A DNA stretch of 64,000 bases from Microgenomates group bacterium. GTDB lineage: Bacteria > Patescibacteriota > Microgenomatia > UBA10105 > UBA927. Shown one piece after another: positions 1 to 36,980 of this stretch (positions are counted from its first letter, which is position 1; every line of letters starts with the position of its first letter). A model generated the notes under the pieces. It had not been told where the DNA came from. It made no database searches and saw nothing but the letters and a program-made list of their open reading frames with translations. The position numbers were made by a program, and so were the translations under genes. Location of the stretch: NCBI GenBank assembly GCA_049287205.1, contig JBAQFJ010000001.1:842505-906504 (forward strand). Reading direction: 5' to 3'.

Positions 1-515
1 CATCCGTCGGCAAATCGCGATAGGTTCTAATTGGATAATGATTTGCATACCGAAGTCGTAATGCGGTAAATGCAACTTTTCCTTTTTCAGAAAATATTGA
101 ATATTCTTCAACTTCTTTAATATCAGCGCCCGGATATGCTCCGTGAATCTGTTTTTCCACAAGATCCTTGATATTTTTAGGAACTGAAACATAAAAACGG
201 ATATCTTCGCGTTTTGCCACCAATTCAAATGAAATATGATCCTGCGGTTTGATAAATGCCCACCACTTATTGTTATAAATACCGTATAAACTGGAAAACA
301 TCTGCTCAGCTGCGTCAATTTTAATTTCATTTTCCCGGGGAACGGCGATTTGGAGAAGCACGTAAGATAATGACCTAGCTTCCCGATCACGATATTTCCA
401 AAGTAAAAAAGCTATATAAACAAATCCAATAAACGCCGCGCCAAAAAATAACAGCAACAATACACTTGTGCCAAATACTTCCGCCTGTCCGATAATTTCT
501 GTAAATTGTTCCGGC
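1..515 (-). CDS. hypothetical membrane-anchored protein, N-terminal part only (CDS runs off the window start)
   Basis: Minus-strand ATG at 515. N-terminus MPEQFTEIIGQAEVFGTSVLLLLFFGAAFIGFVYIAFLLW has one TM helix. Open frame continues to position 1. Last gene of the riboswitch-1 operon. Confidence 0.45.
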
Positions 516-521
516 ATACTC

Positions 522-926
522 TTATTGTATCAATCCTAGCTTTTTAAGTTTATAGCGACACCATTCTGCGAGCCAACGGAATGAATTTGTGATATTGGTA
601 TGTAATCCTTCAGCAATCTGCACATCTGAAAGCGGCAGCACAACGGTTGTTGCAGAATGTATGGGGCTCTGTACTCCGGTAACCTTGACTCCCAAGTTCT
701 GCACAGGAGGAGGAATAGTAACTGTGGTCGGTCTCGCTCTTACGCCAGCGGCGACAACTTCTTTGGGAAGATCCATCTCTTTTCCCAAATCTTTTACCTG
801 TGATTCCGCGGCGCCTATAGGACTATGTTCCTGTTCCTTCCCAAATGAACCAATCGAAGGGGTTATCGTAGTTTTTTGAGTGGAACTATCCCCGTTATTA
901 GGCAGGTTATTCATACGTTTTATCAT
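522..926 (-). CDS. hypothetical protein (134 aa)
   Basis: Track ORF. Same strand and tightly spaced between the 561-aa gene and the downstream membrane protein. No recognisable motif. Confidence 0.4.
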   Translation of the reverse strand: MIKRMNNLPNNGDSSTQKTTITPSIGSFGKEQEHSPIGAAESQVKDLGKEMDLPKEVVAAGVRARPTTVTIPPPVQNLGVKVTGVQSPIHSATTVVLPLSDVQIAEGLHTNITNSFRWLAEWCRYKLKKLGLIQ

Positions 927-966
927 ACCACACTATGCGCTTCATTATGGGAATTTCGATGATGTA

Positions 967-2652
967 TTAACTCACCATCGCATACATATGTCTCCGCATA
1001 TGCTTTCTCTCCAACAAAGATAAATAGTATTCAATCTCCTCAAGATTTTCTTCCCGCACGTCTGTTTGTATAACCTGCATCTGCCTATGTAGGATGGTAT
1101 CTGTTCCAAACTGTTGTTTAATAACTTTTCTTAAAAAGTGCAACAGATTATGTATCCGCTGATTTTGATCTTTTGGCATTTCAACCTCAAACATTTCCGG
1201 CCGTTCGGTTGCCTCTGTAAGCGGCAAAATCCAACATAGTTTTCTAACTTTTTTTGCATCTTTTGGAGCTTTCTCCTGCGTCTGTACCTCTTCTTTCACT
1301 GGGTTGGCAAATAACTGATACACTTCAGCGGGTTCAATTTCTACAACAGATTCTTGTACGCCTGCTAAGAAATACTCTTCAAGTGTTTTCTGCACAACAA
1401 TATTTTCCTCACTATCTTCGTATTGCACTGCTTCAATGTGCTCCGATTGTATTTCCTTCATATAGGGTGGCACATCCGTCACTAATTGTGATACTTCAGA
1501 TTGAAATTCTTGGACACTTGGCCGCCAGTCTCCCACATACTCTTCCTGTAGTTTCATGTCTGCGTTTTGCACTTCCTGCATAATCACGGCATCATAGACA
1601 ATCTCCGCTTTTGTTGATTCACTAGGTACACTATCATATAGTGGTTGTAGCATTGTTGGCTCTATTTGATCGGATTGCTCATGTGTTTCTTTGTACTGAA
1701 ATAACACCGTTACCACAGAAGTCTTTTCTTGTTGCGATACGTGCGTGTCCTCCACTTCAACTATTTTCAGTACTTGCGGTTCTTCTTCCTCAATTTTTGT
1801 ATTTTTTATCATTTCTTCATTCACCGCTACTTGTTGATGTGTTTCTCCCTGACCAACAATGAAAGGAACACTGTATGGTTCTGAACCAGTATTTTCAACA
1901 ACCACATCTCTCACATCTGTTGCTGTGAAAGATACAAATGGCAAAGGAATATATGCCCTATCCCGTTCTTGTTCAATGCGGTATTTTTGCTGATTTGATT
2001 GTACAAATTGTTTTTTTGGAGCTGTAACAATATCTTTTAAAACAGGTCGGACAATTTCGTTCGCACGAGATACGGACAGTTCTTTGTCTGAAAAAATAAA
2101 TACGTTATTTGTCACAAAAACAGATGCAAGTACAGGAAAATATTCCTGCATAAACGCTTGTATAGTTTTCCCCTGCGCTTCTTGCGTCACAGCGGTATTT
2201 ATCATTGTTGTTTTTCCAACTTTTGTTATCGGGTCATACTCCATGATCACGATATCGCGACCGCCATAGCTTGTTGTAACTATCGTTGCACCCTCCTGAA
2301 ATTGGTTTTGGATTAACAGAGATGTCGCGTGTTCTTCCGGAGAATATTTTTCAGGCATTAACCGTTTTTGCCGCTCACTTAAATCCACTAATCCCACTCC
2401 CATACCATATTTCGGATACCACACTAATCCGGCATCGTCTACAGTAAACGCGGCTTCCGGAACTTCATATATCTGCAATCCTCTATTCTCCCGTTTTACA
2501 GTTACCTGCTCCGCTAAAAATTTCGGAAGTAAATCTTGTGCAGTATGCACACGAAGTTCATGCGGTTCCCATTCTGGATGGTCTTGTTGAAATGAAGCAA
2601 ATTTGTCTTTATATGCTGCGAGTGAATTTTCTTTTTCCGGTATACAGTACAT
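967..2652 (-). CDS. uncharacterised acidic (Glu/Gln-rich) cytoplasmic protein; first gene after riboswitch copy 1
   Basis: Track ORF 967..2703 begins with GTG. A better start is the internal ATG (M18, top 2652) directly preceded by AGGAGG. No signal peptide and no known domain recognised. Confidence 0.5.
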   Translation of the reverse strand: MYCIPEKENSLAAYKDKFASFQQDHPEWEPHELRVHTAQDLLPKFLAEQVTVKRENRGLQIYEVPEAAFTVDDAGLVWYPKYGMGVGLVDLSERQKRLMPEKYSPEEHATSLLIQNQFQEGATIVTTSYGGRDIVIMEYDPITKVGKTTMINTAVTQEAQGKTIQAFMQEYFPVLASVFVTNNVFIFSDKELSVSRANEIVRPVLKDIVTAPKKQFVQSNQQKYRIEQERDRAYIPLPFVSFTATDVRDVVVENTGSEPYSVPFIVGQGETHQQVAVNEEMIKNTKIEEEEPQVLKIVEVEDTHVSQQEKTSVVTVLFQYKETHEQSDQIEPTMLQPLYDSVPSESTKAEIVYDAVIMQEVQNADMKLQEEYVGDWRPSVQEFQSEVSQLVTDVPPYMKEIQSEHIEAVQYEDSEENIVVQKTLEEYFLAGVQESVVEIEPAEVYQLFANPVKEEVQTQEKAPKDAKKVRKLCWILPLTEATERPEMFEVEMPKDQNQRIHNLLHFLRKVIKQQFGTDTILHRQMQVIQTDVREENLEEIEYYLSLLERKHMRRHMYAMVS

Positions 2653-2818
2653 ACCTGCCTCCTGCTCGGGAATATATAAAGGGGAGTATCGGACTTTTCC
2701 CACTTCGCTAAAGCTTCGCGGGATTACACCGTTGCGGCACAGTGACTGAATTCCTCGCCCCGCGTAGCTTGTACTCGCGAAGTGGGGGCACAGTCTTCCT
2801 CATCCTTTATATTAGTTT
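2653..2818 (-). promoter_or_regulatory. putative cobalamin riboswitch (copy 1), RBS-sequestering type
   Basis: About 75% identical to copy 2. Contains CCACTGTGCCGCAACGG, GGGAAAAGTCCG (B12-box-like AGYCMGGA start) and CCCGAGCAGGAGGCAGG ending in SD plus ATG. Lies in a 5' leader on the coding strand. Confidence 0.45.
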
Positions 2819-3325
2819 TTAATGACCGACTTGACGCGTAGCATATTTTTTTCTGAAGGATTCCACAAGGGCAAATCCGCCAAAAAATACACCTGAATAC
2901 ATCAAATCGCCAACCAGTGTGTTTCTAAAAAATGGAATCGCCATTGCGTAACATTCCATGAGTCCTGAAAATGTTTTTGCATACATATAATTTGGAGCGA
3001 GCCATACTGCAAAATTTGTAACAACAAAAAACACAATAGACGATACCACTGTTGACCCAATAATCCACCCCGCACTATTCTTTGAAGCGATATATTTCCC
3101 GATAAATATTCCCACAATCAATGCACCATATGTCGCCCACATGACAGAATGCAGTCCTTTTATACTGTCAGCAATCAGCATGGTGGAAAGAAGGACAATA
3201 AGACTTTTTTTCACTCCATATTTTGCACCCATAAATAATGATACTGCCCCCACCGCCGTCAAATTTGGTGCATGTGGAGCGAGTCTTGAAACAACACCTA
3301 AAAGCGTAAAAATAAATAATTCCAT
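2819..3325 (-). CDS. ECF transporter S component, CbrT-like (probable cobalamin-specific substrate-binding membrane protein)
   Basis: About 170 aa, 5-6 TM helices, ECF-S-like. Immediately downstream of a DUF4430 gene and a B12-riboswitch-like leader. Internal ATG at 3325 preferred over the track's TTG at 3361. Confidence 0.5.
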   Translation of the reverse strand: MELFIFTLLGVVSRLAPHAPNLTAVGAVSLFMGAKYGVKKSLIVLLSTMLIADSIKGLHSVMWATYGALIVGIFIGKYIASKNSAGWIIGSTVVSSIVFFVVTNFAVWLAPNYMYAKTFSGLMECYAMAIPFFRNTLVGDLMYSGVFFGGFALVESFRKKYATRQVGH

Positions 3326-3329
3326 AGTT

Positions 3330-3758
3330 TTAAAAAATTGATTTTTCAAATTTCCACTCAACCTGATCCCCTGTTTTTAATTCATACACATCTGCCGCAA
3401 CGTTTCCTGATACAGTATTCACATAATAAATCCAACCATACTCTGCATTTGAAATAACATCATTAATTCCTGTAACAAATTTCCCAAAATCATATTGTTT
3501 TGTTAGCACCGTTTGTTTGTTTTGCTCCGCACCAATAATCAGTGCTTCGTATGGCGTGGTGGCGGAAACGGAAGCGGTAAACAGTTCTGTCGCCTTACCG
3601 GTGTCAATAGTGATAGAAACAGATGGTTTAGATACAGGCTTGGCAACGGCAATTTTCTCTGCATACTTTGTTTCTAATCCGTTTTTCACAAACAACACTC
3701 CGAGCACCACACACATAATAATGAGAAGAATTGTTCTGAAGTTTATTGTTTTTTTCAT
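3330..3758 (-). CDS. DUF4430-family putative cobalamin-binding lipoprotein-like protein
   Basis: N-terminal signal/TM helix, then AEYGWIYYVNTVSGNVAADVYELKTGDQVEWKF matching the DUF4430 signature (GW.Y.VN ... LK.GD.V.W.F). This family classically follows B12 riboswitches. Confidence 0.6.
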   Translation of the reverse strand: MKKTINFRTILLIIMCVVLGVLFVKNGLETKYAEKIAVAKPVSKPSVSITIDTGKATELFTASVSATTPYEALIIGAEQNKQTVLTKQYDFGKFVTGINDVISNAEYGWIYYVNTVSGNVAADVYELKTGDQVEWKFEKSIF

Positions 3759-3780
3759 AGTTTTTACATTTCCCCATTAA

Positions 3781-3968
3781 AAAACCTTCTCGTTTTTATA
3801 CATAAAACCCGAGAAGGCAGTACTCTCTATTTTTTCCTGCTCGGGATAGTCTCACAATAAAGAAAAAGTTCCGGACTTTCCTTCGACAATGCTCAGGATT
3901 ACCGTTGCGGCACAGTGGTTGAATTCCTCGCTCACGTAGCTTGACGCGAAGTGGGGGCACAACCTTCC
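3781..3968 (-). promoter_or_regulatory. putative cobalamin riboswitch (copy 2) with intrinsic-terminator expression platform
   Basis: Minus strand carries GGAATTCAACCACTGTGCCGCAACGG ... GAAGGAAAGTCCGGAAC (CACTG / GGGAAGTC-like / B12-box start). Then CCCGAGCAGG and CCTTCTCGGG, which overlaps a terminator hairpin CCTTCTCG-loop-CGAGAAGG + TTTTTT. Sits upstream of the DUF4430-CbrT operon. Confidence 0.5.
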
Positions 3969-4535
3969 TTATTCCTTATATTCGTGTCCGCTCCACACAA
4001 CATCTGGGACACCAACTGTTTTATTTATACCTCGCGCAATAATAAATAACAAGTCGGATAATCTGTTTACATACATCACCATAAGTGACATATGTTCTTT
4101 CGACACTGTACCGTTCATTTTTTTTGACCTGCTGTATGCAACCATCTGTCTTTCCACCCGCCTGGTAATACTCCGTACAATGTGAACAGTTGCCGACTCT
4201 TTTGTTCCGCCCGGCAAAACAAAATGAGAAAGAGGAGGGAGTTTTGTTTCAATCTCATCTATCCTTTTTTCCATTTCCCTAACCCGATGATTCAAAGATG
4301 ACACATCCCCTTTCCACCCCGCAAGTGTGCTACCGATAAGAAATAAGTCGTGCTGTACACAAACAAGCAGGTGTTTATTTTTCCCAATATGCGAAGTGTT
4401 GATTAATAATCCGATCCAACTATTTACCTCATCGATGGAACCGTATACTTCAACCAGACTATCGCATTTTACGACCCGTTTTCCACCAAAAAGCGCTGTA
4501 GTTCCATCGTCACCGGTCCGAGTATATACTGGCAT
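3969..4535 (-). CDS. pduO: ATP:cob(I)alamin adenosyltransferase, PduO type
   Basis: MPVYTRTGDDGTTALFGGKRV ... signature of PduO/MMAB-type adenosyltransferases. ATG at 4535 sits 2 nt after the nrdJ stop. Confidence 0.8.
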   Translation of the reverse strand: MPVYTRTGDDGTTALFGGKRVVKCDSLVEVYGSIDEVNSWIGLLINTSHIGKNKHLLVCVQHDLFLIGSTLAGWKGDVSSLNHRVREMEKRIDEIETKLPPLSHFVLPGGTKESATVHIVRSITRRVERQMVAYSRSKKMNGTVSKEHMSLMVMYVNRLSDLLFIIARGINKTVGVPDVVWSGHEYKE

Positions 4536-4537
4536 AC

Positions 4538-6958
4538 TTAACACTCACTGTATCCGCAGTTGTAGCATTTTTTACATGATTCTTCAAAAACAAGCGTGCC
4601 TTCACCGCACTTCGGACACAAATCAACCGTCACCATGCGATGCTCTTTTTCTTCAAGAGCTACCACTTTCGGTGTCGCTCCCATTTTTGCTAAAAGCGCC
4701 TGAATATCTTCTCCGGTTTTCTTTTCTTCATTGTTATTTCCTTTTTCCACCGTTACCCGATCTGGTTCTGTAACCGATGCATCAAGTCTGTGTTTTGCAA
4801 AAAATCCAAAATGCCGGTCGATAACTTTTGCAACCGCATCAGGCAAACTCCTCACACGATTTTCTCCAAATCCGAGTGACCTAGCTCCACCAATGCCGAT
4901 GAGTTCAGCGGCAACTTTTCGTGCCCTCTCCATTGGTGCAATTGGAGATGCCATACGGAGTATCAAAGAAATCAATCGTCCCATTGCCTCTGCCATTGCA
5001 GTAACATCACTTCCCGCTTTGCCAACATTGATGAATACCTCAATCGGTTGATTTCCGCCATTCGTATTTACCGTTACATATGCCTGCCCAACCGGCGTTT
5101 CCGCCCGATATGTTGACCCGTGCACTATATCCGGTCGCGGTTTCACTTCAGCGGCTTGTACAACCACTTCCTTTACCTCTTCTTTCTTTGGCTCTTCTTT
5201 TCTTGTTAAGACTCCCTGTCTGCTTCCTTCCCGCATATATGCAATTCCTTTGCATCCGAGATCATATGCGAGTGTATAAATCCGTTTTACATCCTCTACC
5301 GTGTGTACATTCGGTGCGTTTACCGTTTTACTGATAGATGCATCGACATATTTTTGAATTGCCGCCTGTACTTCAACATGATTTTCCGGTGTCAAATCAT
5401 TTGCTGATGCAAAATAGTCTGGTCTGTCTTCTTTAGTTGGTTCTCTCCCGTTTTCTGCCTTAAATTGTTCAAACCATGCGTCATACAGTTCATGCCGGAT
5501 CACATGATCACCTAACCTATCATGTCGCATGTATTCAAACTCATATACTGGTTCAATTCCACTGGAAACTCCAGACAACATAGATGTTGAACCAGTCGGG
5601 GCTTGCTGCAATAATAATGAATTTCTCACCCCGTATCTCCTCATTTTCTTTTTCAATTCATCAGGCAATTGGCTGGGAAAGTATCCTTCAACATGCTTCT
5701 TCTTATCAATTTTTGGGAACGGTCCTTTTTCTTTCGCAATCATGATGGATGACTCATAGGCCGCATCTCTGATTGTTTTATAAATTTTATCAATCACTGC
5801 CAAGCTTTCTTTTGATCCATAACGGATTTTCATCTTGATAAGTGCGTCACCCAAGCCCATGGTGCCAAGACCAATACGCCGTTCTCCTTCCAGTTGCACT
5901 TTTTTGATTTCATCAAATATATACACGTCAGCATCAACCACATTGTCCTGAAACCGAACACCGATTTTAGCAACTTCCGCAAGACGCTCATAATTCATCG
6001 TGCCATCAACACCCACAAGTGCAGCCAAATTGATGGAGCATAAATTACAAACGCCCCAATACGGCAAACCTTCCTCACCACACGGATTCACACAATTCAC
6101 AAATTCATAATAATAATTATTAAACTGTTTATTGTATCTCTCCATAAATACAACACCCGGCTCGGCACTTGTCCAAGCTGCTTTTGCAACCAAATCCCAT
6201 AATTCCCGCGCTTTTACCGTTTTAATTATTTTTGGCGTTTTCCCAAGTGCTAACCAGTTTGGCATATATCCATCCCATTTCGTGTCATAGTCAGGATCTT
6301 GCGTGTCAGGGAAAATCAGATTCCAATCTTCATCGTTTTTAACAGCGGTCATAAATGCATCAGATACACACACGGAAAGATTTGCACCGTTAATTTTTGT
6401 TAAATCTTGTTTCACTGTAATGAATTCTTCTATATCCGGATGCCAATCCCAAAGCATTAACATTAAAGCTCCACGGCGCGTTCCACCCTGCTGAATAATA
6501 TCTTTTGTTGCCACAGAAAACAATTCTGCCCAATTAATAGGACCGGAAGAAAAACCGTTCACTTTTTTTACTCGGGAGCCCCGAGGTCTCAATGTTGAAA
6601 GGTTAATTCCCACTCCTCCACCCCGCGCCATAATTTCCACCATGTTAGACAAGGTTGAAAGAATACCGCCTCTGGAGTCTTTTGGTGATGGGATGACAAA
6701 ACAGTTATAGAAGGTTACCTTATATCCGGTTCCAGCTCCTGAAAGAATTCTGCCACCTGGGACAAACACAAAGTCTTGCATGACATCGTAGAATTTTTCT
6801 TCCCAGTGTAATCGGGTTTCTGGTTTTTCGATTTTTGCCACCGCGTGAGCAACACGGTGCCACATATCCTCAGGAGTTTTTTCTATTGGAGCTCCCATCT
6901 CGTCTTTGAGTGCATATCGGTCCAAAAAGACCTTGCTACGAATTCCAGTAAGTTCCAT
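4538..6958 (-). CDS. nrdJ: ribonucleoside-triphosphate/diphosphate reductase, class II (adenosylcobalamin-dependent)
   Basis: 806 aa. RNR catalytic core motifs and a C-terminal Cys4 zinc ribbon (CPKCGEGTLVFEESCKKCYNCG) typical of NrdJ. Confidence 0.9.
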   Translation of the reverse strand: MELTGIRSKVFLDRYALKDEMGAPIEKTPEDMWHRVAHAVAKIEKPETRLHWEEKFYDVMQDFVFVPGGRILSGAGTGYKVTFYNCFVIPSPKDSRGGILSTLSNMVEIMARGGGVGINLSTLRPRGSRVKKVNGFSSGPINWAELFSVATKDIIQQGGTRRGALMLMLWDWHPDIEEFITVKQDLTKINGANLSVCVSDAFMTAVKNDEDWNLIFPDTQDPDYDTKWDGYMPNWLALGKTPKIIKTVKARELWDLVAKAAWTSAEPGVVFMERYNKQFNNYYYEFVNCVNPCGEEGLPYWGVCNLCSINLAALVGVDGTMNYERLAEVAKIGVRFQDNVVDADVYIFDEIKKVQLEGERRIGLGTMGLGDALIKMKIRYGSKESLAVIDKIYKTIRDAAYESSIMIAKEKGPFPKIDKKKHVEGYFPSQLPDELKKKMRRYGVRNSLLLQQAPTGSTSMLSGVSSGIEPVYEFEYMRHDRLGDHVIRHELYDAWFEQFKAENGREPTKEDRPDYFASANDLTPENHVEVQAAIQKYVDASISKTVNAPNVHTVEDVKRIYTLAYDLGCKGIAYMREGSRQGVLTRKEEPKKEEVKEVVVQAAEVKPRPDIVHGSTYRAETPVGQAYVTVNTNGGNQPIEVFINVGKAGSDVTAMAEAMGRLISLILRMASPIAPMERARKVAAELIGIGGARSLGFGENRVRSLPDAVAKVIDRHFGFFAKHRLDASVTEPDRVTVEKGNNNEEKKTGEDIQALLAKMGATPKVVALEEKEHRMVTVDLCPKCGEGTLVFEESCKKCYNCGYSEC

Positions 6959-6980
6959 ATAGAAACACCTCCTTTAAAGG

Positions 6981-7427
6981 TTACGAAATTTTTTTTACTT
7001 CTTTTGCTAAATCTTCAATATCAACAAATTGCTTAAATACACTCGAAAATCGAATATATGCAATCTTATCTAGTTTTTTTAATCGTTTTGCAACGAACAT
7101 ACCAATCGTATTACTTGTCACTTCATTGGTGTCTCCGCTAATAATCTCTTTCTCCACTTCATCAACAATTCTTGCTACATCAGGAGCTGTAATCGTTGTT
7201 TTCCCGCTTGCCCGCCAAATACCTCTGCTTAATTTTTCCCGATCAAATGTTTCCCGTCTATTGTCTTTTTTGATAACTGTTATCGGTACATGCTCAACGC
7301 GTTCATATGTTGTAAACCTTTTCTCACACTTTTGGCAAGCCCTTCTTCTTCGAGTAACCGTCAAATCCTCGCTGTCTCGCGTTTCAAGTACATCAGTATC
7401 TTTATTGTCGCAATAGGGACATTTCAT
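6981..7427 (-). CDS. nrdR: transcriptional repressor NrdR
   Basis: MKCPYCDNKDTDVLETRDSEDLTVTRRRRACQKCEKRFTTYERVE zinc ribbon plus ATP-cone. Lies 22 nt upstream of nrdJ. Confidence 0.9.
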   Translation of the reverse strand: MKCPYCDNKDTDVLETRDSEDLTVTRRRRACQKCEKRFTTYERVEHVPITVIKKDNRRETFDREKLSRGIWRASGKTTITAPDVARIVDEVEKEIISGDTNEVTSNTIGMFVAKRLKKLDKIAYIRFSSVFKQFVDIEDLAKEVKKIS

Positions 7428-27054: not shown

Positions 27055-27126
27055 CTCCCCCGCGAGGATTCGAACCTCGAACCTTCTTCTTAACAGGAAG
27101 CCGCTCTACCATTGAGCTACAGGGGA
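27055..27126 (-). tRNA. tRNA-Asn (GTT)
   Basis: Cloverleaf UCCCCUG/CGGGGGA acceptor, D arm GCUC/GAGC, anticodon loop CUGUUAA, T loop UUCGAAU. Confidence 0.85.
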
Positions 27127-27214
27127 ATGTTAAGAATACTTTGGTATTATACCACGGCTATTTTGATTTTGGCAGTGAAAAAGTATACCCTTACTATATA
27201 AGGAGGACACCCCT

Positions 27215-27532
27215 ATGAACGGTTGTCTTACAATTGGCGGTATTATTTTTTTACTCCCCTTCATTGCGTTTATCGCATTTATCATTAAACTCATTGTCAA
27301 AGGAAAAAATGAGGCGTGGAAAGGAACGATTACTGATAAATCTCACAATACAAAACGAGGCAGTTTTGAGGATAGTCATAAAACCGAAAGTTTCTACTCC
27401 TTAAAAGTAAAAATGACTGACGGTAAAGAACGCAATATTGCTGTCTCCAGTAAATTTTGGACGGAATGTAAGGTTGGAGATACAATCGAAAAACCAAAAG
27501 GTGCGATGTATCCAACTAAATTAGTTGGATAA
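27215..27532 (+). CDS. small membrane-anchored protein (hypothetical)
   Basis: AAGGAGGA RBS. N-terminal TM helix. Confidence 0.45.
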   Translation: MNGCLTIGGIIFLLPFIAFIAFIIKLIVKGKNEAWKGTITDKSHNTKRGSFEDSHKTESFYSLKVKMTDGKERNIAVSSKFWTECKVGDTIEKPKGAMYPTKLVG

Positions 27533-27545
27533 CTTCCTTTACAGC

Positions 27546-28700
27546 TTAAAACGAAAGTAAATACTCCGCTGCACGAACCAATAAATGCGGGGAGGAAACT
27601 TTATTTTGTTGGAATTCCTCTTTCCATGCTCCATTTTTCCATACTGTAAGCGCTTTTGTGATACGTTTTATTTTTTCTTTATTCATATGAAATCCTAATG
27701 GAAAAAACAAAATATCACGAGTAGTTGACCATTTGCTGTCTGGAAATTTTGACCAAACAACAATATTTTTACGTTTAAGATAGGAAAGTAACGTTCCATC
27801 CATTTTTTTCTTCAACCCAACCGGATATACGTGTAATTTGCCATAATTACTTCGCTTCATCATGATTCGATAAAAAGGTGAGGATTTTGTATAGAGTGGC
27901 TTGAACATATGTTCGTAAATCTTTGTCTGCTCCCTCTTCACCCGCTCTACCGCTTCCCGATTAAGCCATTGCGAAACCCATGCGATCCCCCATATTCCGC
28001 GATGCGCCACAGTGTCGCCCATAATGTCGTCATGATTCTTCAAGATTTTTTTATGTGCAAACACTGCTATTGATGGTTTATTTAACACATATGACGCGAC
28101 TAATACCATCCTGAATAACATATATAAAAGCGTTGTATGTATTGTATACATAGACCAAAAACGTTTTGTCTGTGAAAATTGCATGCCCTTTTTTGTTCCA
28201 TACAGAAAACTTCCATATAACGGGGTCACTTTTCGGAGACTATCCATCAAAAAATGCTTTTCGTTTACAGGTTTCACTGTTTGCGGATCCAATAATTGTT
28301 GAACACAGTCTTCAATAAGGAGCGCCTTTTTTGTTATTTTTTGTATAACAGACAACGTACCAATTACAGTGCTCGCGATTCCTGCCGCATGAAAAATAAT
28401 GACAACTGCGGGGTGGTGACGCTGTACACTTCGAAGTAGCGCTTGTTTTTTAATCTGGAAATGCTTATCCAGCTTATAAAATGCCACGATATATCCATGT
28501 GAGCGCATATTATTAATCACGTCCGTACAATAAAAATCAGGAAGCAAGATAGTGCTCCCCTTTTCTATTTGTTTTTTTTGAAGCAAATCCCATAACCCGT
28601 CTTCCCAAGACCAGTAATAATATCGTTTTGTGAAGACATTCGGAAGACTCACGCGAGAGCTTAAAAAAGGAAATAAAAACGGTTGATAATGTTCAATCAT
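27546..28700 (-). CDS. hypothetical protein (384 aa)
   Basis: Track ORF. Weak resemblance to the DegT-like aminotransferase fold only. Unassigned. Confidence 0.4.
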   Translation of the reverse strand: MIEHYQPFLFPFLSSRVSLPNVFTKRYYYWSWEDGLWDLLQKKQIEKGSTILLPDFYCTDVINNMRSHGYIVAFYKLDKHFQIKKQALLRSVQRHHPAVVIIFHAAGIASTVIGTLSVIQKITKKALLIEDCVQQLLDPQTVKPVNEKHFLMDSLRKVTPLYGSFLYGTKKGMQFSQTKRFWSMYTIHTTLLYMLFRMVLVASYVLNKPSIAVFAHKKILKNHDDIMGDTVAHRGIWGIAWVSQWLNREAVERVKREQTKIYEHMFKPLYTKSSPFYRIMMKRSNYGKLHVYPVGLKKKMDGTLLSYLKRKNIVVWSKFPDSKWSTTRDILFFPLGFHMNKEKIKRITKALTVWKNGAWKEEFQQNKVSSPHLLVRAAEYLLSF

Positions 28701-28725
28701 ACGTTTTGAAAATAATAAGAAAGCA

Positions 28726-29859
28726 CTATTCGAGGTAGTCTTTCAACTTCTTACTCCGTGACGGATGGCGAAGTTTTCGTAAGGCTTTTGCCTCAATTTG
28801 TCTGATACGTTCACGGGTGACTCCAAACATGGCTCCCACTTCTTCCAATGTTCTCGGTTTTCCATCCTCCAGCCCGAAACGCAAAATAAGTACTTTTTTT
28901 TCTCTATCTGAAAGTGTTGTCAGTACTTCTTCCATGTGCTCTTTCAACAGTTGTTTGCTGGTCTGATCATACGGGGTTGGCCCCGGGTCGGAAATAAAAT
29001 CTCCTAAATGACTGTCTTCCTCATCGCCTACCGGTGTTTCCAGACTGGTTGGTTCCTGAGAGACTTTCATAATCTCCCGTACTTTTGTCACGTCGACTTC
29101 CATTGCTTTTGCAATTTCCTCTGGAAACGGTTCACGGCCAAGATCCTGCATGAGACGCCTTGAAATTCTTGCAAACCTGTTAATCGTTTCCACCATGTGC
29201 ACAGGAATACGAATGGTACGCGCCTGATCTGCAATTGCTCTCGTTATTGCCTGTCTAATCCACCACGTTGCGTATGTGGAAAATTTATATCCCTTTCGCC
29301 AATCATATTTTTCAACTGCTCGTATTAGCCCCTGATTTCCCTCTTGAATAAGATCCAAAAGACTCATACCACGCCCGATATATTTCTTTGCGATAGACAC
29401 AACAAGCCGAAGATTCGATTCTGTTAACTTACGTTTTGCTTTTTTATCCCCTTTTTCATACCGTTTTGCAAGATATATTTCATCTTCAAATTTAAGAAGC
29501 GGAATACGTCCAATTTCTTTTAAATACATGCGAACCGGATCTGATACGGGCTCAACACTGGAAGTTGCGAGTGATTCAATTTCCTTTTCGAGCTCTTCAA
29601 TACTTTTTCCTGCTTCTTTTTCCACATCAGCTGACGTTGTTTCAAACACGTCAACACCCGCGCGAATCAATTTATCGTATAAACTATCTATCTCAATGAT
29701 GTGTTCTTCCGGTTTTGGATAAAGGAACAGGATATCTTCCTGAGAAATGAAGCCGTTTTCTTTTCCTTCTTTTAAGAGGTCTTCTGCACTAGAAACATTT
29801 TTTGCTTTTGCCATAATTGTACCGTGAGTCCCTGCAGGCAAATGAGTACTCATTTGCAA
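28726..29859 (-). CDS. rpoD: RNA polymerase sigma factor RpoD (sigma-70)
   Basis: Region 2 [37 protein letters not shown], plus regions 3 and 4. Start may be at MAKAK (29814). Confidence 0.9.
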
Positions 29860-29898
29860 ACAATGAACTTCGCTTGGATTAGTAGGATTATAACAGAA

Positions 29899-31686
29899 CT
29901 ACGAGCTTTTTTCCAGCATGGTAAACTCTGTGGTAAGCCGAGCAAGATCTTCTTGAATGGTAGCCTCATCTTCAACGCTCGCTGTTTTCATACGGTCAGT
30001 AACATCCCGCATCTTCCTTTTTAGAATCGCTTTCTGTACTTCCTTGAGTGTTTTTAGCCATTCTTTTTTAAACAGGTCGCTTTTATCCGAATGTACAGCC
30101 AAATCCCAAAGATACGCCTCATCTAACACCGGCAAGAGTTCCTTTGGCAATGTTTTTGCAAATTCAATAACTGAAAAATCATCGTCTGGTACACCATAGT
30201 TCTTTATCTGTTCCATGATTCTCCGAACCCCCATATGTTTAAGCTCCGTAGGAGTAATCACTGAAAAAAATTCATTTGCCAACGTCTTTGTATCCCCTTG
30301 TAGTAGTAATCCAAGGCAATACAACTCCAATCGTTCCGGACCAGAAATAGCAAAGCTTTCTTTTTTACCTTCCGGCTCTTTTGATACCCGAAACGATTCA
30401 AGTGCCGGTTTTACCTTTTTCATTCCATCAATGATTGTTTCTTCTGAAACGCTTAGCTCTGTGGCAACTTTTTTAATGTAATGCCCCTGTACAATACTAT
30501 TTTCAATTTTGGAAAGTATCGGCAATAATTCTTCGCTCGCTTTCTTTTTTCCGAAGGCTGTGGTCGTGTCAAATCTTTTTTTGGATGAACTGATAAAATA
30601 ATCGTAAATTGGAACAGCGTTTTTCATTGCTTTTTTCAGCCCCACAGGATCTTCTCTTGCTGCTTCATCCGGATCTTTCCCCATTGGCATCACCGCTACC
30701 TTCATATCCATCCCTTCACGTTCCGCAATATCAATGCCGCGCCTCGCAGCCGCATCTCCCGCCACATCACTATCAAGCGCAAAAATAAGCCGTTCTGTAT
30801 ACCGTTTTAATAAATGGACGTGTCCTTCTGTAAGCGCCGCACCTTTAATTGCAACAACATTCGCAACACCTGATTGAAAAGAAGAGATAACATCAATTTC
30901 TCCTTCCATAAGAATCGCTTCATTGGCTTTTACAATTGCGTCCTGTGTAACATCCAGCCCAAAAAGCACATTACTTTTACTGTACACGGGGGTTTCTGAG
31001 GTATTGATATATTTTGCCTCTTTTATAGTAGGGTCTAACACCCGACCGGAAAATCCGACGACTTTCCCCCGATGATCACGAAGTGTAAACATCAGTCTTC
31101 CGCGAAAGCGATCATACAGTCCGCGATTACCGCGAAGCGCAAGTCCCGCTTTTTCAATAAGCGCATCACTATACTGTTTCTTTTTTAAGAATTGATACAA
31201 TGCCTCCCAACTGTTTGGACTGTATCCTAACCCAAATGTTTTAATTGATTTATCAGTTATCCCGCGGTTTTTCACATACAAAAGCGCTTTTTCTCCAAGC
31301 GGATGCTTGGTTAAAAGATATGTAAAATATGAACTTGCAAGTTCATTTATCTCATACATCGATTCTTTTAATTTTTTATCCGGAGAATCATTTTTTCTTT
31401 CCTGCAGTGCTACTCCCGCACGATTTGCCAGCTCCTCTAGCGCCTCGGGAAATTCCATATGTGTATACTCCATGACAAAATCAATGACTGATCCTCCTTT
31501 ACCGCATCCGAAACAATGGAACACTTGACGGTCAGGAGACACCATAAATGACGGGGTTTTTTCGTTATGAAAGGGACACAGTCCTTTGAAGTTTCGGCCG
31601 GATTTTTTCAGTGTTACTTTTTCACCAATAACATCAATAATATTTAATCTTGATTTAACTTCATCTGCATCGCCCATATGTGACAC
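29899..31686 (-). CDS. dnaG: DNA primase
   Basis: CHC2 zinc finger CPFHNEKTPSFMVSPDRQVFHCFGCGKGG. Toprim domain. Classic dnaG-rpoD arrangement. Confidence 0.9.
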   Translation of the reverse strand: MSHMGDADEVKSRLNIIDVIGEKVTLKKSGRNFKGLCPFHNEKTPSFMVSPDRQVFHCFGCGKGGSVIDFVMEYTHMEFPEALEELANRAGVALQERKNDSPDKKLKESMYEINELASSYFTYLLTKHPLGEKALLYVKNRGITDKSIKTFGLGYSPNSWEALYQFLKKKQYSDALIEKAGLALRGNRGLYDRFRGRLMFTLRDHRGKVVGFSGRVLDPTIKEAKYINTSETPVYSKSNVLFGLDVTQDAIVKANEAILMEGEIDVISSFQSGVANVVAIKGAALTEGHVHLLKRYTERLIFALDSDVAGDAAARRGIDIAEREGMDMKVAVMPMGKDPDEAAREDPVGLKKAMKNAVPIYDYFISSSKKRFDTTTAFGKKKASEELLPILSKIENSIVQGHYIKKVATELSVSEETIIDGMKKVKPALESFRVSKEPEGKKESFAISGPERLELYCLGLLLQGDTKTLANEFFSVITPTELKHMGVRRIMEQIKNYGVPDDDFSVIEFAKTLPKELLPVLDEAYLWDLAVHSDKSDLFKKEWLKTLKEVQKAILKRKMRDVTDRMKTASVEDEATIQEDLARLTTEFTMLEKSS

Positions 31687-31753
31687 TCCTCAAATTTATT
31701 GATACACAGCTCTTGGTTTAGAGAATACCACAAAACATAAAAATGGCAACTAT

Positions 31754-32224
31754 CTAAAGAAGAATTGGCAAAAGAAATGGAGTTTTCCGGTATTCGAGAT
31801 ATTGTCTGATCGTTTCTCCGTGGTCGAATGCGAATTCATCAAACGGAAGAAGTTTTTCAATTGGAATCCATTCCACTTTGGAAGATTCCCAATCTTTTTC
31901 GCCAGTTTTTTTAAGCGGTTTAACAATAAATTCTATGGTAATATTTTGCCTGTCTTCATGAGGCCTATTTGGATTCGTATTAATTTTAAAAAGTCGCACA
32001 ACTTCCCCTTCCCACCCTGTCTCCTCTTTGAGTTCCCGTATGGCACACTCCGCAGCTGTCTCATCACGCTCTAAAAATCCCGCAGGCAAACTCCATTTCC
32101 CTGTTTCAAGTATCGGCCCATCTCGTTTTTCCAAAAGTAAACATCCATCTTTCTCTACAACCATGTGCACGACAACATGACGAAGTGAAGCATTATTTCC
32201 GTTTTCAAAAGTACAAGTCAACAT
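31754..32224 (-). CDS. NUDIX hydrolase
   Basis: Nudix box GFLERDETAAECAIRELKEETG. Confidence 0.75.
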   Translation of the reverse strand: MLTCTFENGNNASLRHVVVHMVVEKDGCLLLEKRDGPILETGKWSLPAGFLERDETAAECAIRELKEETGWEGEVVRLFKINTNPNRPHEDRQNITIEFIVKPLKKTGEKDWESSKVEWIPIEKLLPFDEFAFDHGETIRQYLEYRKTPFLLPILL

Positions 32225-32239
32225 ATACGTAGTATAGAA

Positions 32240-33475
32240 CTATTTCTGTAGCTTTCCAGCAACCCACCCTGATGCCCACGCCCAAGACAAATTATATCCG
32301 CCAACATCGCCATCTACATCTAGCAGTTCACCTGCAATATACAAATGTGGAGCTTTTGTGGACGCAAGAGTGGATACATCAACTTCATCAGCAGATATAC
32401 CCCCTGAAGTAAATTCCGCTTCATTCCATCCACGAGTCCCTGTAATGATTAATTCGTACCTTGTCAGTGTTTCAACTAGTCTCATTTTTTCTTCACTCGT
32501 TATAGTACTTGCTGTGGTTTCTTTTTGTATATTTGAGGCTGCGCATAGTGCATTTGCAACTTTTACGGTAAACAATCCCCATAAACTTCTTGCGATAGAC
32601 TGGTTTGGATCTCTTAATAATCGCTTTTCCACGCGGTCACGAATTTCTTCTTTTCCAACACCGGGGAAAAATGACAAATACAGTGGAATGCTTTGTTCAT
32701 GCTCTCTGTTTATTTGTATAGAAATATCCCGCGAAATATCAAAAACTGCAGAACCTGAAATACCATATTGTGTAAACAACACATCACCCACACACATATG
32801 TTCCTTTGTGGATATTTCCATCGTTACCCGTTCCCCCTGAAGAAAATGACATAATACATTTTTTGTAACCAAGGGCACTGCGCTTGGAACCGGCTCTATG
32901 ATTGTGTGCCCGACACTACGCGCCAACACATATCCTGAACCATTTGACCCAAGGGACGGATATGTCATCCCGCCACAAGTAAGAATAATGCTCTGAGAAA
33001 CAATGGTAGTGTTATCAGTACTAATGTTCCAACCATTATCTTTTTGAGAAATTCCAGTTACTTCTGTGGAAATACGTATATCAATCTTATTTTTCTGCAA
33101 TTCATCGACTAGAATGTCGCGAACTGTTTTTGCGTTATCAATAACCGGAAATATTTTTCCTCTTCCTGTCTTTTGTTCCTCATAGAGCGGAATACCCATA
33201 TCTACAAAAAAGGACTTAATTTTTTTTCCGTCATATTGAGAAAATACTTCTTTCATCAAAGCTGATTTTCCATGAAAATGAGCAAGGATGTTGTCATCTA
33301 AATTGGCGTTAGTGAGATTCCCTCTTCCGGCTCCCGCCACAAGTATTTTTCTCCCCAATTCAAACGTATGGTCAATAATACAAATTGTTGCTTCTTTATG
33401 ATGCTGACGGGCTGAAAAGGCCGCCATCATACCGGCAGCTCCACCCCCAATAATACAAATAGTATAGGTATCCAT
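32240..33475 (-). CDS. HI0933/BaiN-family FAD-dependent flavoprotein
   Basis: N-terminal ICIIGGGAAGMMAA dinucleotide-binding motif. Family-typical length. Confidence 0.75.
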   Translation of the reverse strand: MDTYTICIIGGGAAGMMAAFSARQHHKEATICIIDHTFELGRKILVAGAGRGNLTNANLDDNILAHFHGKSALMKEVFSQYDGKKIKSFFVDMGIPLYEEQKTGRGKIFPVIDNAKTVRDILVDELQKNKIDIRISTEVTGISQKDNGWNISTDNTTIVSQSIILTCGGMTYPSLGSNGSGYVLARSVGHTIIEPVPSAVPLVTKNVLCHFLQGERVTMEISTKEHMCVGDVLFTQYGISGSAVFDISRDISIQINREHEQSIPLYLSFFPGVGKEEIRDRVEKRLLRDPNQSIARSLWGLFTVKVANALCAASNIQKETTASTITSEEKMRLVETLTRYELIITGTRGWNEAEFTSGGISADEVDVSTLASTKAPHLYIAGELLDVDGDVGGYNLSWAWASGWVAGKLQK

Positions 33476-33542
33476 TGCATTTGATTATAAATCAAATATA
33501 ACTTCTATACACATAGGCGTTTCCTTTGTATAATCAAACTCT

Positions 33543-34178
33543 ATGAATATCATCATGAATCTGGTCAATTTTATATTGCATATTGACACACATCTCGTTC
33601 AATTAGTTTCCACATATGGCGTCATCACCTATGCAATCATTTTCGGAATTATTTTTATAGAAACAGGTCTTGTGCTGACACCATTTTTACCGGGAGACTC
33701 ACTTCTTTTTGCAACAGGTGCTCTTGCTGCACTCGGATCATTTAATGTTTGGCTTATTCTTCCTTTAATGATCCTTGCCGCAATATTAGGCGATACATCC
33801 AACTATTGGATTGGACATTTTTTTGGAGAAAAAATGATCGCGAATCCAAAAATCCCCATCAAAAAAGAACACATCGAAAAAACGAACGCATTCTTTGAAA
33901 AATACGGAGGCAAAACAATTATTCTTGCCAGATTTGTTCCTATTGTCAGAACATTTGCGCCGTTTGTTGCGGGTGTCGGAAAAATGCACTACGGAAAATT
34001 TATTTCCTATAACATTATCGGCGGCATTGCATGGGTTTCAATATTTATTCTTGCAGGATATTTCTTCGGCAATATGGAATCTATTAAGGAAAACTTTTCA
34101 ATAGTTGTCATGGCAATTATCTTGATCTCTGTTATACCGATGGTGTTTGAAGCGGTGAAGCACAAGCTAAAAAAATAA
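33543..34178 (+). CDS. DedA/VTT-domain membrane protein
   Basis: [24 protein letters not shown] motif. Confidence 0.85.
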
Positions 34179-34187
34179 CGCTCGTTT

Positions 34188-34969
34188 TTATTTTTTCAAC
34201 TTTCGATATATATCCTCATCAATCATTGACGCTTTACAAGGGGAAACCGCGATATGACCCCTTTGTATCACTTGAACATCCGTATCCGCATCACCCATGG
34301 TCAGCATATGATCGCCTGATACATAAGAAAACATACCTGTTTTTTTATTTAACTCCATCGGTGGCCACAATCCACGCATAATTTCAAGCGGTTTAGCAAA
34401 TTCTACGATGGTCGTATGATGTGCAGGAATATTAATATTGGCAATACTTGCCCCCCAACACTTTGTACGAAATGCTTCATCTAAAATATTCTTTGCTGAC
34501 ATTCCCGGATGTTTAATGAATGCTTCAATCCCGTCTGTTTTGGTATGCCGGGTAAAATGATGTTTGGAGGAAATATCCCAACTAATAGCGATAGCCCGCG
34601 GAGCAAGACCGAGATTTATTCCGTAAAACGCTGCCGAAAATGTTCCGGAGCTACATAAACTACCACCAACATTAATACCCCAATTCATGCCGGAGACAAT
34701 ATAGTCAAATGGATGTGTATACCATGATTTAGCCGCTTCGATTGCATCAACCGGCGTACCGTTCACCCATAATGCAGGAACTCCATCAACTTTTTCCACT
34801 CCCCATTCTCCCGTTCCTGTAATTGATTTATGTCCGCCAACCCCGCTTTGTTGTTTTTTTGTTCCTGCAATAGAAAGCTTATGTGAGTTTTTCAATATAT
34901 GAATCAGGACACGAGTCCCTAAAGAATCATACCCATCATCACCGGTTAAAAGTATTGATTTTTTATTCA
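34188..34969 (-). CDS. surE: 5'/3'-nucleotidase SurE
   Basis: MNKKSILLTGDDGYDS N-terminus (SurE DDG motif). The track ORF continues upstream through the tRNA-Ser gene from a TTG and is not credible there. Confidence 0.8.
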
Positions 34970-34972
34970 TAA

Positions 34973-35061
34973 GCGGAGGAGACAGGATTCGAACCTGCGA
35001 TGAGGTTGCCCCCAAACAGACTTTCCAGGTCTGCGCCATAAACCAACTAGGCGACTCCTCC
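34973..35061 (-). tRNA. tRNA-Ser (GGA)
   Basis: GGAGGAG acceptor, anticodon loop CUGGAAA, long variable arm, T loop UUCGAAU. Confidence 0.8.
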
Positions 35062-35066
35062 AAATA

Positions 35067-35315
35067 TTAAAATTGCGAAACTATCTTTTTCTTTTCTAAA
35101 TATCCTTTTGGATGTTTTAAAAACCACTCCCTTGTATACGCCTCTTTTTTATTCTCAAAACTTTCTATATATTTCAAAACCCACGGTCTATACGGTTTCG
35201 TCGATTTTGATTTTCCTTTGTTATGTTCCTCCAACCTTCTCTCAATATTATCTGAAACACCAATATACCATCTCTTATAGATGTCGCTTTTCAAAAAATA
35301 AACAATCCAAGCCAT
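35067..35315 (-). CDS. GIY-YIG nuclease family protein (YhbQ/UPF0213-like)
   Basis: WYIGVSDNIERRLEEHNKG matches the GIY-YIG core (Y-x-G ... R ... E-H). Confidence 0.75.
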   Translation of the reverse strand: MAWIVYFLKSDIYKRWYIGVSDNIERRLEEHNKGKSKSTKPYRPWVLKYIESFENKKEAYTREWFLKHPKGYLEKKKIVSQF

Positions 35316-35359
35316 AAACCAAAGCCGACGGCTGCCCTTCGGGCCTAGGCGACTCCTCC
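35311..35359. repeat. duplicated 5' fragment of tRNA-Ser(GGA) interrupted by a 22-nt GC hairpin
   Basis: gccataaaccaa + [agccgacggctgcccttcgggc] + ctaggcgactcctcc repeats nt 1-27 of the tRNA at 35035-35061. The GIY-YIG ATG lies inside the copy. Confidence 0.5.
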
Positions 35360-35406
35360 TTGGAAAAACTTATCGAATTATATCATTCTTGCGATATAAT
35401 CGGAGT

Positions 35407-36312
35407 ATGTCGAAAAAACATCTCGCGTTCCTCGCAATTTTTGTCGCCTCTCTTCTCTGGTCAACTTCAGGTGTTTCAGCAAAAATTCTTGTTGCCGATG
35501 TTAACCCGATTGTTATCAGCATGTATCGATTTTTTATCGCCTCGTTATGCATCCTACCGTTTTTTATCAGACAAAAACATAAACACTTTCCATGGAAACA
35601 ACTGCTCATGCCGACAATTATTGGAGGACTGAGCGCTCCATTGTTTTTTCTTGGCATCAAAACAACGCTCGCTAATTCAGGAACACTCATCTATACCGCC
35701 ACTCCTCTTGTCACCGCAATACTTGCATATTTCCTTATCCGTGAAAAAAATTCCTTGTCAAAATGGATAGGGATTCTTATCGGACTCATCGGAGTTATTC
35801 TCATAATCCTGCTCCCAACTTATGAAACAAAAACTGCTATGACGGGCAATCTTCAAGGCAATATGCTTATCACAGCGGGAATGCTTTGTTGGACTGTATA
35901 TGCAATTTTATGCCGAAAACTCAGACTGAATAATCAGGTATCTTCAATTACAACGACATCAATATATTTTTTTGTATCCACCATTCTCTGTTTTCTATTT
36001 TTAACAGTCACAAACGAACCGTTATTCCCCGCCGCACTTTTTTCATCACCAACACATCTCGGGGTACTTATCTATTTAGCAATAGGATTAACGCTCATCA
36101 CATTTTCTCTTTACCAGTGGGCTATCGGTTATCTTAGCGCCACCACTGCATCATTTAAACAATATATTGAGGTGGTGTTTGCCATTATCGTCAATGGAAT
36201 ATTTCTTGGAGAAAAAATGACCACCGGATTTCTCATTGGAGCCTCTCTTGTTGTTTTAGGTCTTATTGTCGCAACGGTCGGAAAAATGAACAGTTTAAGA
36301 AGAAATAAATAA
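35407..36312 (+). CDS. EamA/DMT-family transporter
   Basis: 10 TM helices. WSTSGVSAKILV EamA-like motif. ATG 35407 preferred over 35389. Confidence 0.75.
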   Translation: MSKKHLAFLAIFVASLLWSTSGVSAKILVADVNPIVISMYRFFIASLCILPFFIRQKHKHFPWKQLLMPTIIGGLSAPLFFLGIKTTLANSGTLIYTATPLVTAILAYFLIREKNSLSKWIGILIGLIGVILIILLPTYETKTAMTGNLQGNMLITAGMLCWTVYAILCRKLRLNNQVSSITTTSIYFFVSTILCFLFLTVTNEPLFPAALFSSPTHLGVLIYLAIGLTLITFSLYQWAIGYLSATTASFKQYIEVVFAIIVNGIFLGEKMTTGFLIGASLVVLGLIVATVGKMNSLRRNK

Positions 36313-36314
36313 CT

Positions 36315-36389: not shown

Positions 36390-36395
36390 AAATTT

Positions 36396-36821: not shown

Positions 36822-36885
36822 CTCTCTCCTTCGCGATCCGAATGCCGACTGCGTCCGCCGTAGTCCAGCTTAAGGCGAGCGAAGG

Positions 36886-36971: not shown

Positions 36972-36980
36972 TTGTAGCAT

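Follow-up and report, generated by a model that had tools for sequence, protein, structure and literature searches.

Why should a leader RNA that resembles a cobalamin riboswitch stand in front of a gene whose product belongs to no known family? The question is raised by a stretch of 64,000 nucleotides (nt) from a Microgenomates group bacterium (assembly GCA_049287205.1, contig JBAQFJ010000001.1, positions 842,505 to 906,504 of the forward strand; hereafter the window), an uncultured member of the Candidate Phyla Radiation (CPR, or Patescibacteria), bacteria of ultra-small size. The minus strand of positions 1-7427 holds genes of B12 metabolism and two similar leaders, of which copy 2 precedes the genes of a DUF4430 and a DUF6580 protein and copy 1 precedes the gene of X, a protein of 561 amino acids (aa), followed by the genes of two further proteins, Y and Z. 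Our reading, to which we assign a probability of about 0.8, is that the leaders are two paralogous class II cobalamin riboswitches of OFF polarity and that X, usually together with Y and Z, is a conserved cobalamin-starvation module of a CPR clade. Comparative sequence analysis establishes what the RNAs are, supports their fold and kissing loop by covariation and shows the linkage to X to be conserved.

Identity of the two leader RNAs

The leaders of related loci were compared with the Rfam models, and several of them passed the gathering score (36.5 bits) of RF01689 (AdoCbl-II, the class II cobalamin riboswitch): both leaders of L005 (copy 1, 42.6 bits; copy 2, 39.0 bits), L013 (46.6 bits), copy 2 of L001 (43.0 bits) and L009 (42.2 bits). 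Copy 2 of L007 passed RF00174 (34.2 versus 31.5 bits), and the remote leaders of L136 and L139 reached 35.6 bits with RF01689 (E = 8e-7) and 38.9 bits with RF01482 (E = 9.5e-6), respectively. These orthologous leaders are often much shorter than those of the window, at about 85 nt, and do without the two hairpin insertions that the window copies carry. A covariance model (R1) was then built from 15 orthologous CPR leaders, none of them from the window; searched against the 64-kb window it returned exactly two sites, 2660-2815 (76.0 bits, E = 5.9e-16) and 3835-3984 (65.7 bits, E = 1.7e-13), both on the minus strand. In the R1 alignment the window copies depart from the core only by an insertion in L4 (32-36 nt) and another in P6 (20-26 nt), and it is because these hairpins depress the score that the window copies stay below the Rfam thresholds.

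By these comparisons both leaders are class II cobalamin riboswitches of the RF01689 type and paralogous to each other. The first-pass annotation, made from the sequence alone, had taken both for cobalamin riboswitches, and the orthologues that pass RF01689 together with the covariation described below bear this out; it had pointed to RF00174 and RF01482, an assignment that we replace with RF01689, the best family for the minimal orthologues. Cobalamin is confidently predicted as the class of ligand, judging from the B12 regulon that lies downstream of this riboswitch subtype. The match of one further locus, L014, to RF01689 is partial because positions 1-27 of its contig are Illumina adapter sequence (GAGTTCAGACGTGTGCTCTTCCGATCT), which truncates the riboswitch.

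Aptamer fold and covariation

The copy 2 aptamer folds into P1, P3, P4 with a 32-nt hairpin insert in L4, P5 with the loop L5 UGCCG, and P6 with an insert of about 20 nt, followed by a B12-box-like AGUCCGGAAC and the P13 hairpin UCC-CGAGCA-GGA. Copy 1 has the same hairpin (U2671-C-C / CGAGCA / G-G-A2660), with inserts of 36 nt in L4 (2753-2788) and 26 nt in P6 (2698-2723). Differences between copy 1 and copy 2 are compensatory in both P3 (GAG/CUC versus AAG/CUU) and P4 (GACUG/CAGUC versus GGUUG/CAACC). Among the 15 CPR leaders 94.6% of cells were paired, compared with 35-56% when the partners were slid, and nine pairs had changed on both sides. The P7-P11 extension that class I riboswitches bear on P6 is absent, the P6 of minimal orthologues being CGG-UAAAGU-CCG and that of the window copies holding only one short variable hairpin.

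Metagenome contigs scanned for the pattern provided at least 120 further members of the subtype. Over 134 distinct instances the variable P4 pairs 2-4 were paired in 99-100%, as opposed to about 50% in shuffles, and the four-base class of L5 predicted the sequence of L13: UGCC went with CG(N)GCA (0.99), UCCC with CG(N)GGA (0.85) and CCCC with CG(N)GGG (0.93), the off-diagonal values of the matrix being 0.19 or lower. L136 follows the same rule with an L5 of UACC paired with an L13 of CGAGUG, and the P13 stem covaries as well (UCC/GGA, CUCU/AGAG, CUCC/GGAG and UUGA/UCAA). On this comparative evidence the contact made by the downstream hairpin is the L5-L13 kissing loop, and P4, the kissing loop and P13 are all covariation-supported. 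The covariation analysis that had been proposed as a check on the leaders thus supports the fold in the CPR leaders and the 134 instances alike.

The inserts themselves show a further feature. The L4 insert of copy 1 is complementary to its P6 insert over 9 nt (CCACUUCGC x GCGAAGUGG), and the minimum free energy fold of copy 1 uses this pairing; L008 (1-145) has a different complementary pair of inserts, AAUUCGCG x CGCGAAUU, and copy 2 of L002 (6732-6880) has CUUUUCG x CGAAGGG, while copy 1 of L007 has no such pair. The pairing of insert with insert may substitute Watson-Crick base pairs for the L4-L6 tertiary contact of class II riboswitches; chance is the other possible explanation.

Conservation of the riboswitch upstream of X

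The riboswitch lies directly upstream of X in 15 of the 15 lineages for which upstream sequence was at hand (the window, L001, L002, L004-L009, L013, L014, L053, L111, L136 and L139), down to about 20% protein identity: L013 and L014 share 39-43% identity with X in its N-domain, L136 and L139 about 20%, and L053 and L111 are metagenome loci with the riboswitch ahead of an X homologue. The first-pass annotation had noted that its proposal would fail if orthologues of the 561-aa gene never sat behind B12 elements; they do so in every one of these lineages. (A search for related loci with a narrower alignment yielded 5 genome loci.) In L013 and L014, X retains the riboswitch though no B12 genes are nearby.

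A copy ahead of DUF4430, by contrast with the X-linked one, is found in only some lineages. L006 and L009 have no DUF4430-linked riboswitch and pduO abuts DUF4430 there, and the DUF4430 and DUF6580 genes are absent altogether from L136, L139 and the P0088 locus. The earlier view of copy 2 as the textbook arrangement and of copy 1 as the departure from it therefore holds in part: the target of copy 1 is indeed unusual, yet the X-linked copy is the widespread one and the DUF4430 copy the patchy one. From this distribution the X-linked copy is probably ancestral, and the DUF4430 copy looks like a later duplicate.

L053 and L111 repeat the tandem layout, with a riboswitch, a DUF4430-like small open reading frame (ORF), about 1.1 kb, a second riboswitch and the X homologue; at these loci the X-linked copy has a terminator-type platform instead of occlusion of the Shine-Dalgarno (SD) sequence. 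Three contigs, CAZSTG010000001.1 (L010), CAZERT010000041.1 (L013) and CAZVTJ010000060.1 (L014), are titled 'uncultured Gammaproteobacteria bacterium' yet carry CPR-type synteny or the X family, and these labels are probably wrong.

Organization of the locus

ORFs and family matches confirmed the gene order first proposed, from nrdR, nrdJ and pduO through a leader, DUF4430, a membrane protein and a second leader to the 561-aa protein, the 134-aa protein and a gene cut by the window edge. The features, in window coordinates, are:

6981-7427, minus strand: NrdR repressor, with Zn ribbon and ATP-cone
4538-6958, minus strand: nrdJ, class II (B12-dependent type) ribonucleotide reductase (RNR; Ribonuc_red_lgC 2.5e-122, lgN, TSCPD domain)
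3969-4544, minus strand: PduO-type ATP:cob(I)alamin adenosyltransferase (PF01923, 4.8e-50)
3835-3984, minus strand: riboswitch copy 2 (orthologue-derived covariance model, 65.7 bits)
3779-3845, minus strand: copy 2 expression platform (from sequence and folds)
3330-3758, minus strand: DUF4430 protein, 142 aa, with an N-terminal transmembrane (TM) or signal-like segment (PF14478, 5.8e-12)
2819-3361, minus strand: DUF6580 integral membrane protein, 180 aa (PF20221, 2.9e-43)
2660-2815, minus strand: riboswitch copy 1 (orthologue-derived covariance model, 76.0 bits)
2650-2662, minus strand: SD sequence and start of X (GGAGG 2662-2658, 5-nt spacer, AUG 2652-2650)
967-2652, minus strand: X, 561-aa protein, no family match
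522-926, minus strand: Y, 134-aa protein, no family match, 40 nt downstream of X
2-517, minus strand: Z, N-terminal 172 aa only, the gene running past the window edge; a single TM helix followed by DUF8128

The two leaders form direct repeats (D2, 41 nt at 85%; D3, 31 nt at 94%) and are homologous from end to end, the 5' part of about 95 nt being nearly identical and the rest differing by indels. The end of pduO, its final codons and UAA stop included, overlaps the 5' strand of P1/P3 in copy 2 (3969-3984), and copy 1 starts 7 nt past the DUF6580 stop codon (2812-2821). There is thus no room for a promoter of its own at either copy, which suggests that both are intercistronic riboswitches inside one long transcript led by nrdR-nrdJ-pduO; in such a transcript X would stand behind two checkpoints in series in the window. 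Elsewhere on the minus strand of the window are a gene for tmRNA at 39208-39620 (103.4 bits) and seven for tRNAs at 27055-37935, of which six form a cluster in 34974-37935.

Expression platforms and proposed switching

In copy 1 the invariant UCC-CGAGCA-GGA runs directly into GG-N5-AUG of X, so that three bases of the SD sequence GGAGG (2662-2658) also belong to the 3' strand of P13. The layout UCCCGAGCAGGAGG-N5-8-AUG is kept in seven other lineages (L001, L002, L004, L005, L006, L007 and L008), and the sequestration of the ribosome-binding site that had been suggested for copy 1 finds its structural counterpart in this overlap between the SD sequence and the kissing-loop hairpin.

Copy 2 has a different platform. 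Pairing of its segment CCCGAGCAGG (3845-3836) with the complementary CCUUCUCGGG (3817-3808) would make the proposed antiterminator; alternatively, CCUUCUCG pairs with CGAGAAGG (3792-3785) and is followed by U6 (3784-3779), a terminator just upstream of the DUF4430 start codon at 3758. The CCUUCUCGGG segment is itself the 5' arm of the CCUUCUCG/CGAGAAGG hairpin. The same three-element design is conserved in L001, L002, L004, L007, L013, L053, L136 and L139, with sequence variation in the last four, and the earlier description of a terminator/antiterminator pair in copy 2 is upheld by the terminator, the hairpin competing with it and their recurrence in L013, L136 and L139.

The proposed mechanism is that binding of B12 would lock L5 (UGCCG) onto the P13 loop CG(A)GCA in both copies. 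In copy 2, capture of L13 would then take CCCGAGCAGG away from its pairing with CCUUCUCGGG, allowing the CCUUCUCG/CGAGAAGG-U6 terminator to form and to stop transcription ahead of DUF4430-DUF6580, the presumptive genes of B12 capture and import; without B12, the CCCGAGCAGG/CCUUCUCGGG pairing would form first and prevent termination. In copy 1, the ligand-stabilized P13 would hold the SD sequence GGAGG, to which its 3' strand contributes, and would block initiation of translation of X. Both switches would on this account be of OFF polarity, as we infer from the two platforms, and DUF4430-DUF6580 and X would be expressed when cobalamin is scarce.

Proteins X, Y and Z

X consists of a conserved N-domain (1-212), a disordered acidic linker (about 217-462) and a conserved C-domain (468-561), and its N-terminus keeps the pattern M-x-C-x-[C/P]-E-K-[E/D]. 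An exhaustive profile search enlarged the family to 128 representative clusters, compared with 9 proteins by word-indexed search; in the 133 sequences collected, the N-domain was found in 118 and the C-domain in 30. X had no Pfam, NCBIfam, PADLOC, PDB-sequence or fold match, despite a confident model of the N-domain. The canonical B12-binding motif DxHxxG...SxL...GG was considered and rejected, its residues and spacing being wrong when the family alignment was inspected by eye. A tblastn search of X against plasmid and phage collections found no homologue, and this, together with constant synteny between core genes, leads us to conclude from sequence comparison that the X-Y-Z cluster is not a mobile element.

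Conservation is much stronger in Y than in X, with 86% identity between Y of the window and that of the L002 lineage, and Y follows X in L001-L009 and L135-L139. The gaps are 40 nt between X and Y and 4 nt between Y and Z, no terminator-like site lies between the three genes, and the order PduO, gap, X, Y, Z recurs in the remote lineages. Z has a hydrophobic segment at residues 17-43, approximately, which forms an N-terminal membrane anchor, and its full-length orthologues, of 782 aa, are coupling-protein ATPases of the VirD4/TrwB/TraD type, of the hexameric kind, with a DUF8128 region of about 300 aa between the TM helix and the ATPase. One orthologue (L002, 10129-12477) matched TrwB_AAD_bind (3.8e-8), T4SS-DNA_transf (4.8e-6) and TraG-D_C (5.9e-6) above the Pfam cut-offs, and also DUF87; it matched SXT_TraD at 1.3e-15, below the NCBIfam cut-off, and TrwB (1e9r) at 9.3e-7, and its match to CedD was weak. 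By these family matches Z is a TrwB/VirD4-type P-loop domain protein with an N-terminal anchor. No Pfam family of a relaxase or of a type IV secretion system (T4SS) channel component (virB4 and others) was found within ±8 kb of Z in L002, L004-L006, L136 and L139.

Downstream of Z most lineages (L002, 12538-13935; L004, L005, L006, L139 and the P0088 locus) have an ATP-grasp-like protein of about 465 aa that matches PGM1_C and, weakly, Pre-ATP-grasp and a BesA/LdmS-like ligase; it may belong to the same operon as X-Y-Z.

A 2025 survey counted 5,713 VirD4-type coupling proteins (T4CPs) in Patescibacteria, only 148 of them near virB4 (PMC12102498). They lie mostly away from virB4 and are possibly exapted, T4SS are widespread in the phylum and relaxases rare, and the routes by which Patescibacteria acquire nucleotides are stated to be unknown (PMC12102498).

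DUF4430, DUF6580 and the wider regulon of the subtype

In metagenomes the genes behind the same riboswitch subtype encode BtuF-like proteins (12), DUF4430 (12), CobU (5), class I RNR (2-3) and MetE (2), and also TonB receptors, CobN and BtuR; genes for the transport and salvage of B12 and for B12-independent isozymes predominate. The gene of DUF4430, which ranks among the two most frequent families, comes first behind the riboswitch in 12 of 104 instances, and its transporter partner is presumed to be the DUF6580 protein. The latter had been labelled a CbrT-like S-component of an ECF transporter; only Pfam DUF6580 was matched, there was no NCBIfam match, and a phmmer search (E ≤ 10) of every chain in the PDB found nothing, so that the label stays unverified and without a sequence relation to solved chains.

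About half of the first ORFs behind the subtype had no Pfam match. Small clusters of proteins recur among them, some of 450-590 aa, in part with C-terminal CxxC...CxxC motifs, and others of about 240 aa (L042, L085, L094 and L105; L093, L110 and L127; L047 and L117; L031, L115 and L132). Going by their position, these unannotated clusters are candidate members of the B12 regulon outside CPR. A literature search for DUF8128, for DUF6580 or DUF4430 with a riboswitch, and for cobalamin riboswitches of CPR found no paper.

Weighing of the reading and its alternatives

Several observations count against the reading of X-Y-Z as a riboswitch-controlled starvation module. At the gathering threshold Rfam gave no cobalamin riboswitch match over the 64-kb window; with permissive filters copy 2 scored 24.5 bits to RF00174, below the gathering score of 31.5, and copy 1 had no Rfam match even at E ≤ 10. 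P5, P6, P13 and the kissing loop are invariant within the CPR set, and hence draw their support from the broader metagenome set. Equilibrium folding predicted the copy 2 terminator whether or not the L13 segment was available and was set aside as proof of switching, thermodynamics alone being insufficient where the terminator wins in both constructs; the antiterminator would consequently have to act co-transcriptionally, for which a kinetic argument and the conserved complementarity speak. Copy 1 would act only on the translation of X, and that Y and Z of the window are controlled along with it is an assumption. X bore no likeness to any known B12-binding or B12-processing protein in the family and structure comparisons. 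Finally, Y and Z are missing behind X in L013 and L014, so that X alone may be the functional unit.

Two of the facts already given, the lack of an Rfam match for copy 1 and its start only 7 nt after the DUF6580 stop, might suggest that copy 1 has no part in the regulation of X and is either the decaying remnant of a local duplication or a 3' element that belongs to DUF4430-DUF6580. The comparative data contradict this, and we regard it as highly improbable: copy 1 outscores copy 2 with the orthologue-derived model, the differences between the copies are compensatory and not disruptive, the SD-containing P13 is invariant, and the 15 lineages with a riboswitch ahead of X include L013, L136 and L139, which have no upstream DUF4430/DUF6580.

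What X-Y-Z does is a separate matter. The first-pass annotation had put forward storage, chaperoning or a B12-independent substitute as candidate functions. Our tentative guess is that it acts in the acquisition or handling of cobalamin for NrdJ and PduO, because of the riboswitch, the constant adjacency to pduO and nrdJ and the presence of X-Y-Z where DUF4430 and DUF6580 are absent. The cluster might instead serve as a back-up route by which deoxynucleotides or DNA are obtained while NrdJ is idle, and the logic of repressing a B12-independent alternative would apply here too, given that the same subtype precedes class I RNR and MetE in metagenomes. Z belongs to the DNA-translocating VirD4/TrwB/TraD/HerA superfamily and the cluster sits between nrdR-nrdJ and a NUDIX gene; possible exaptation of T4CPs and nucleotide acquisition routes not yet known would suit such a role (PMC12102498). 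Yet no nuclease, DNA-binding or competence domain was found in X or Y, X keeps its riboswitch without Z in L013 and L014, and the locus offers no channel partner for Z, which has just one TM helix; we consider the back-up route unlikely. More speculatively, the coupling protein Z could recruit X as a substrate or adaptor of the T4SS, with B12 scarcity as the cue for its deployment against or into a host cell for the vitamin. The long acidic disordered linker and conserved C-terminal domain of X, its position beside a T4CP-like ATPase in most lineages and the wide occurrence of T4SS in Patescibacteria, where relaxases are rare (PMC12102498), would fit; the lack of virB4 or other T4SS genes within about 8 kb at any locus examined does not, and we rate deployment of this kind as quite improbable.

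Comparison with known systems

The RNA is a new member of an established family, remarkable above all for the insertions that conceal it from Rfam. RF01689, or AdoCbl-II, was formerly named AdoCbl-variant, and its structural prototype is env8 HyCbl (Johnson et al. 2012). With class II riboswitches the leaders share a compact aptamer that is built on a four-way junction and lacks the P7-P11 of class I, the conserved GGAA, GUGNAANUC L4, GCAAC and AGUCCG elements, and control through the L5-L13 kissing loop by a hairpin carrying the ribosome-binding site. They differ from the class II consensus in that the window copies have the inserts in L4 (32-36 nt) and P6 (20-26 nt) and fall below the Rfam thresholds, L5 is one nt shorter, and one nucleotide bulges from the kissing loop, CG(N)xxx. 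Class II cobalamin riboswitches with such hairpin insertions in L4 or P6 are therefore overlooked at the Rfam thresholds.

An L5-L13 kissing loop is a known element of cobalamin riboswitches, and more than one riboswitch on a single transcription unit is known from metE of Bacillus clausii, which has tandem SAM and AdoCbl riboswitches. Unlike that tandem, the window has the same class twice, with two cistrons between the copies, different platforms (termination and SD occlusion) and different sets of genes. The comparative genomics of Vitreschak and Rodionov reportedly placed B12 riboswitches on transport genes and on genes of B12-independent isozymes (btuB/btuF, metE, nrdAB/nrdDG). Copy 2 before DUF4430/DUF6580 fits such an OFF switch on genes needed in scarcity, and the regulon of the subtype is typical; the target X, with Y and Z, is in contrast a member of no known transport, biosynthesis or isozyme family. 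Z resembles VirD4/TrwB T4CPs, and the orphan ones of Patescibacteria in particular, in its TrwB/TraD-type nucleotide-binding domain, its membrane anchor and its position away from virB4 (PMC12102498); it differs from them in its DUF8128 region, in its fixed chromosomal cluster beside nrdJ-pduO downstream of a cobalamin riboswitch, and in that no relaxase or T4SS channel gene was found at the locus. What appears to be new is the target, an unannotated, fold-orphan conserved family coupled to an orphan T4CP and marked by the riboswitch as putatively B12-responsive.

Many CPR depend on a B12-dependent ribonucleotide reductase for all of their DNA precursors, and to our knowledge CPR/Patescibacteria cannot make B12. 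The finding therefore bears on how these bacteria obtain and handle the vitamin. A riboswitch is a readout, written into the genome, of the genes that are tied to a metabolite, and here it marks the X family with its 128 representative clusters. Through the shared operon, one class among the thousands of orphan VirD4-type T4CPs of Patescibacteria (PMC12102498) is putatively linked to B12, and the function of such proteins becomes testable by way of B12-dependent expression and of contacts of X, Y and Z with cobalamin, PduO, NrdJ or DNA. If true, a role of X-Y-Z as a B12- or nucleotide-related translocation system would raise the interest of the locus further; the conserved arrangement itself points to an undescribed response to B12 shortage.

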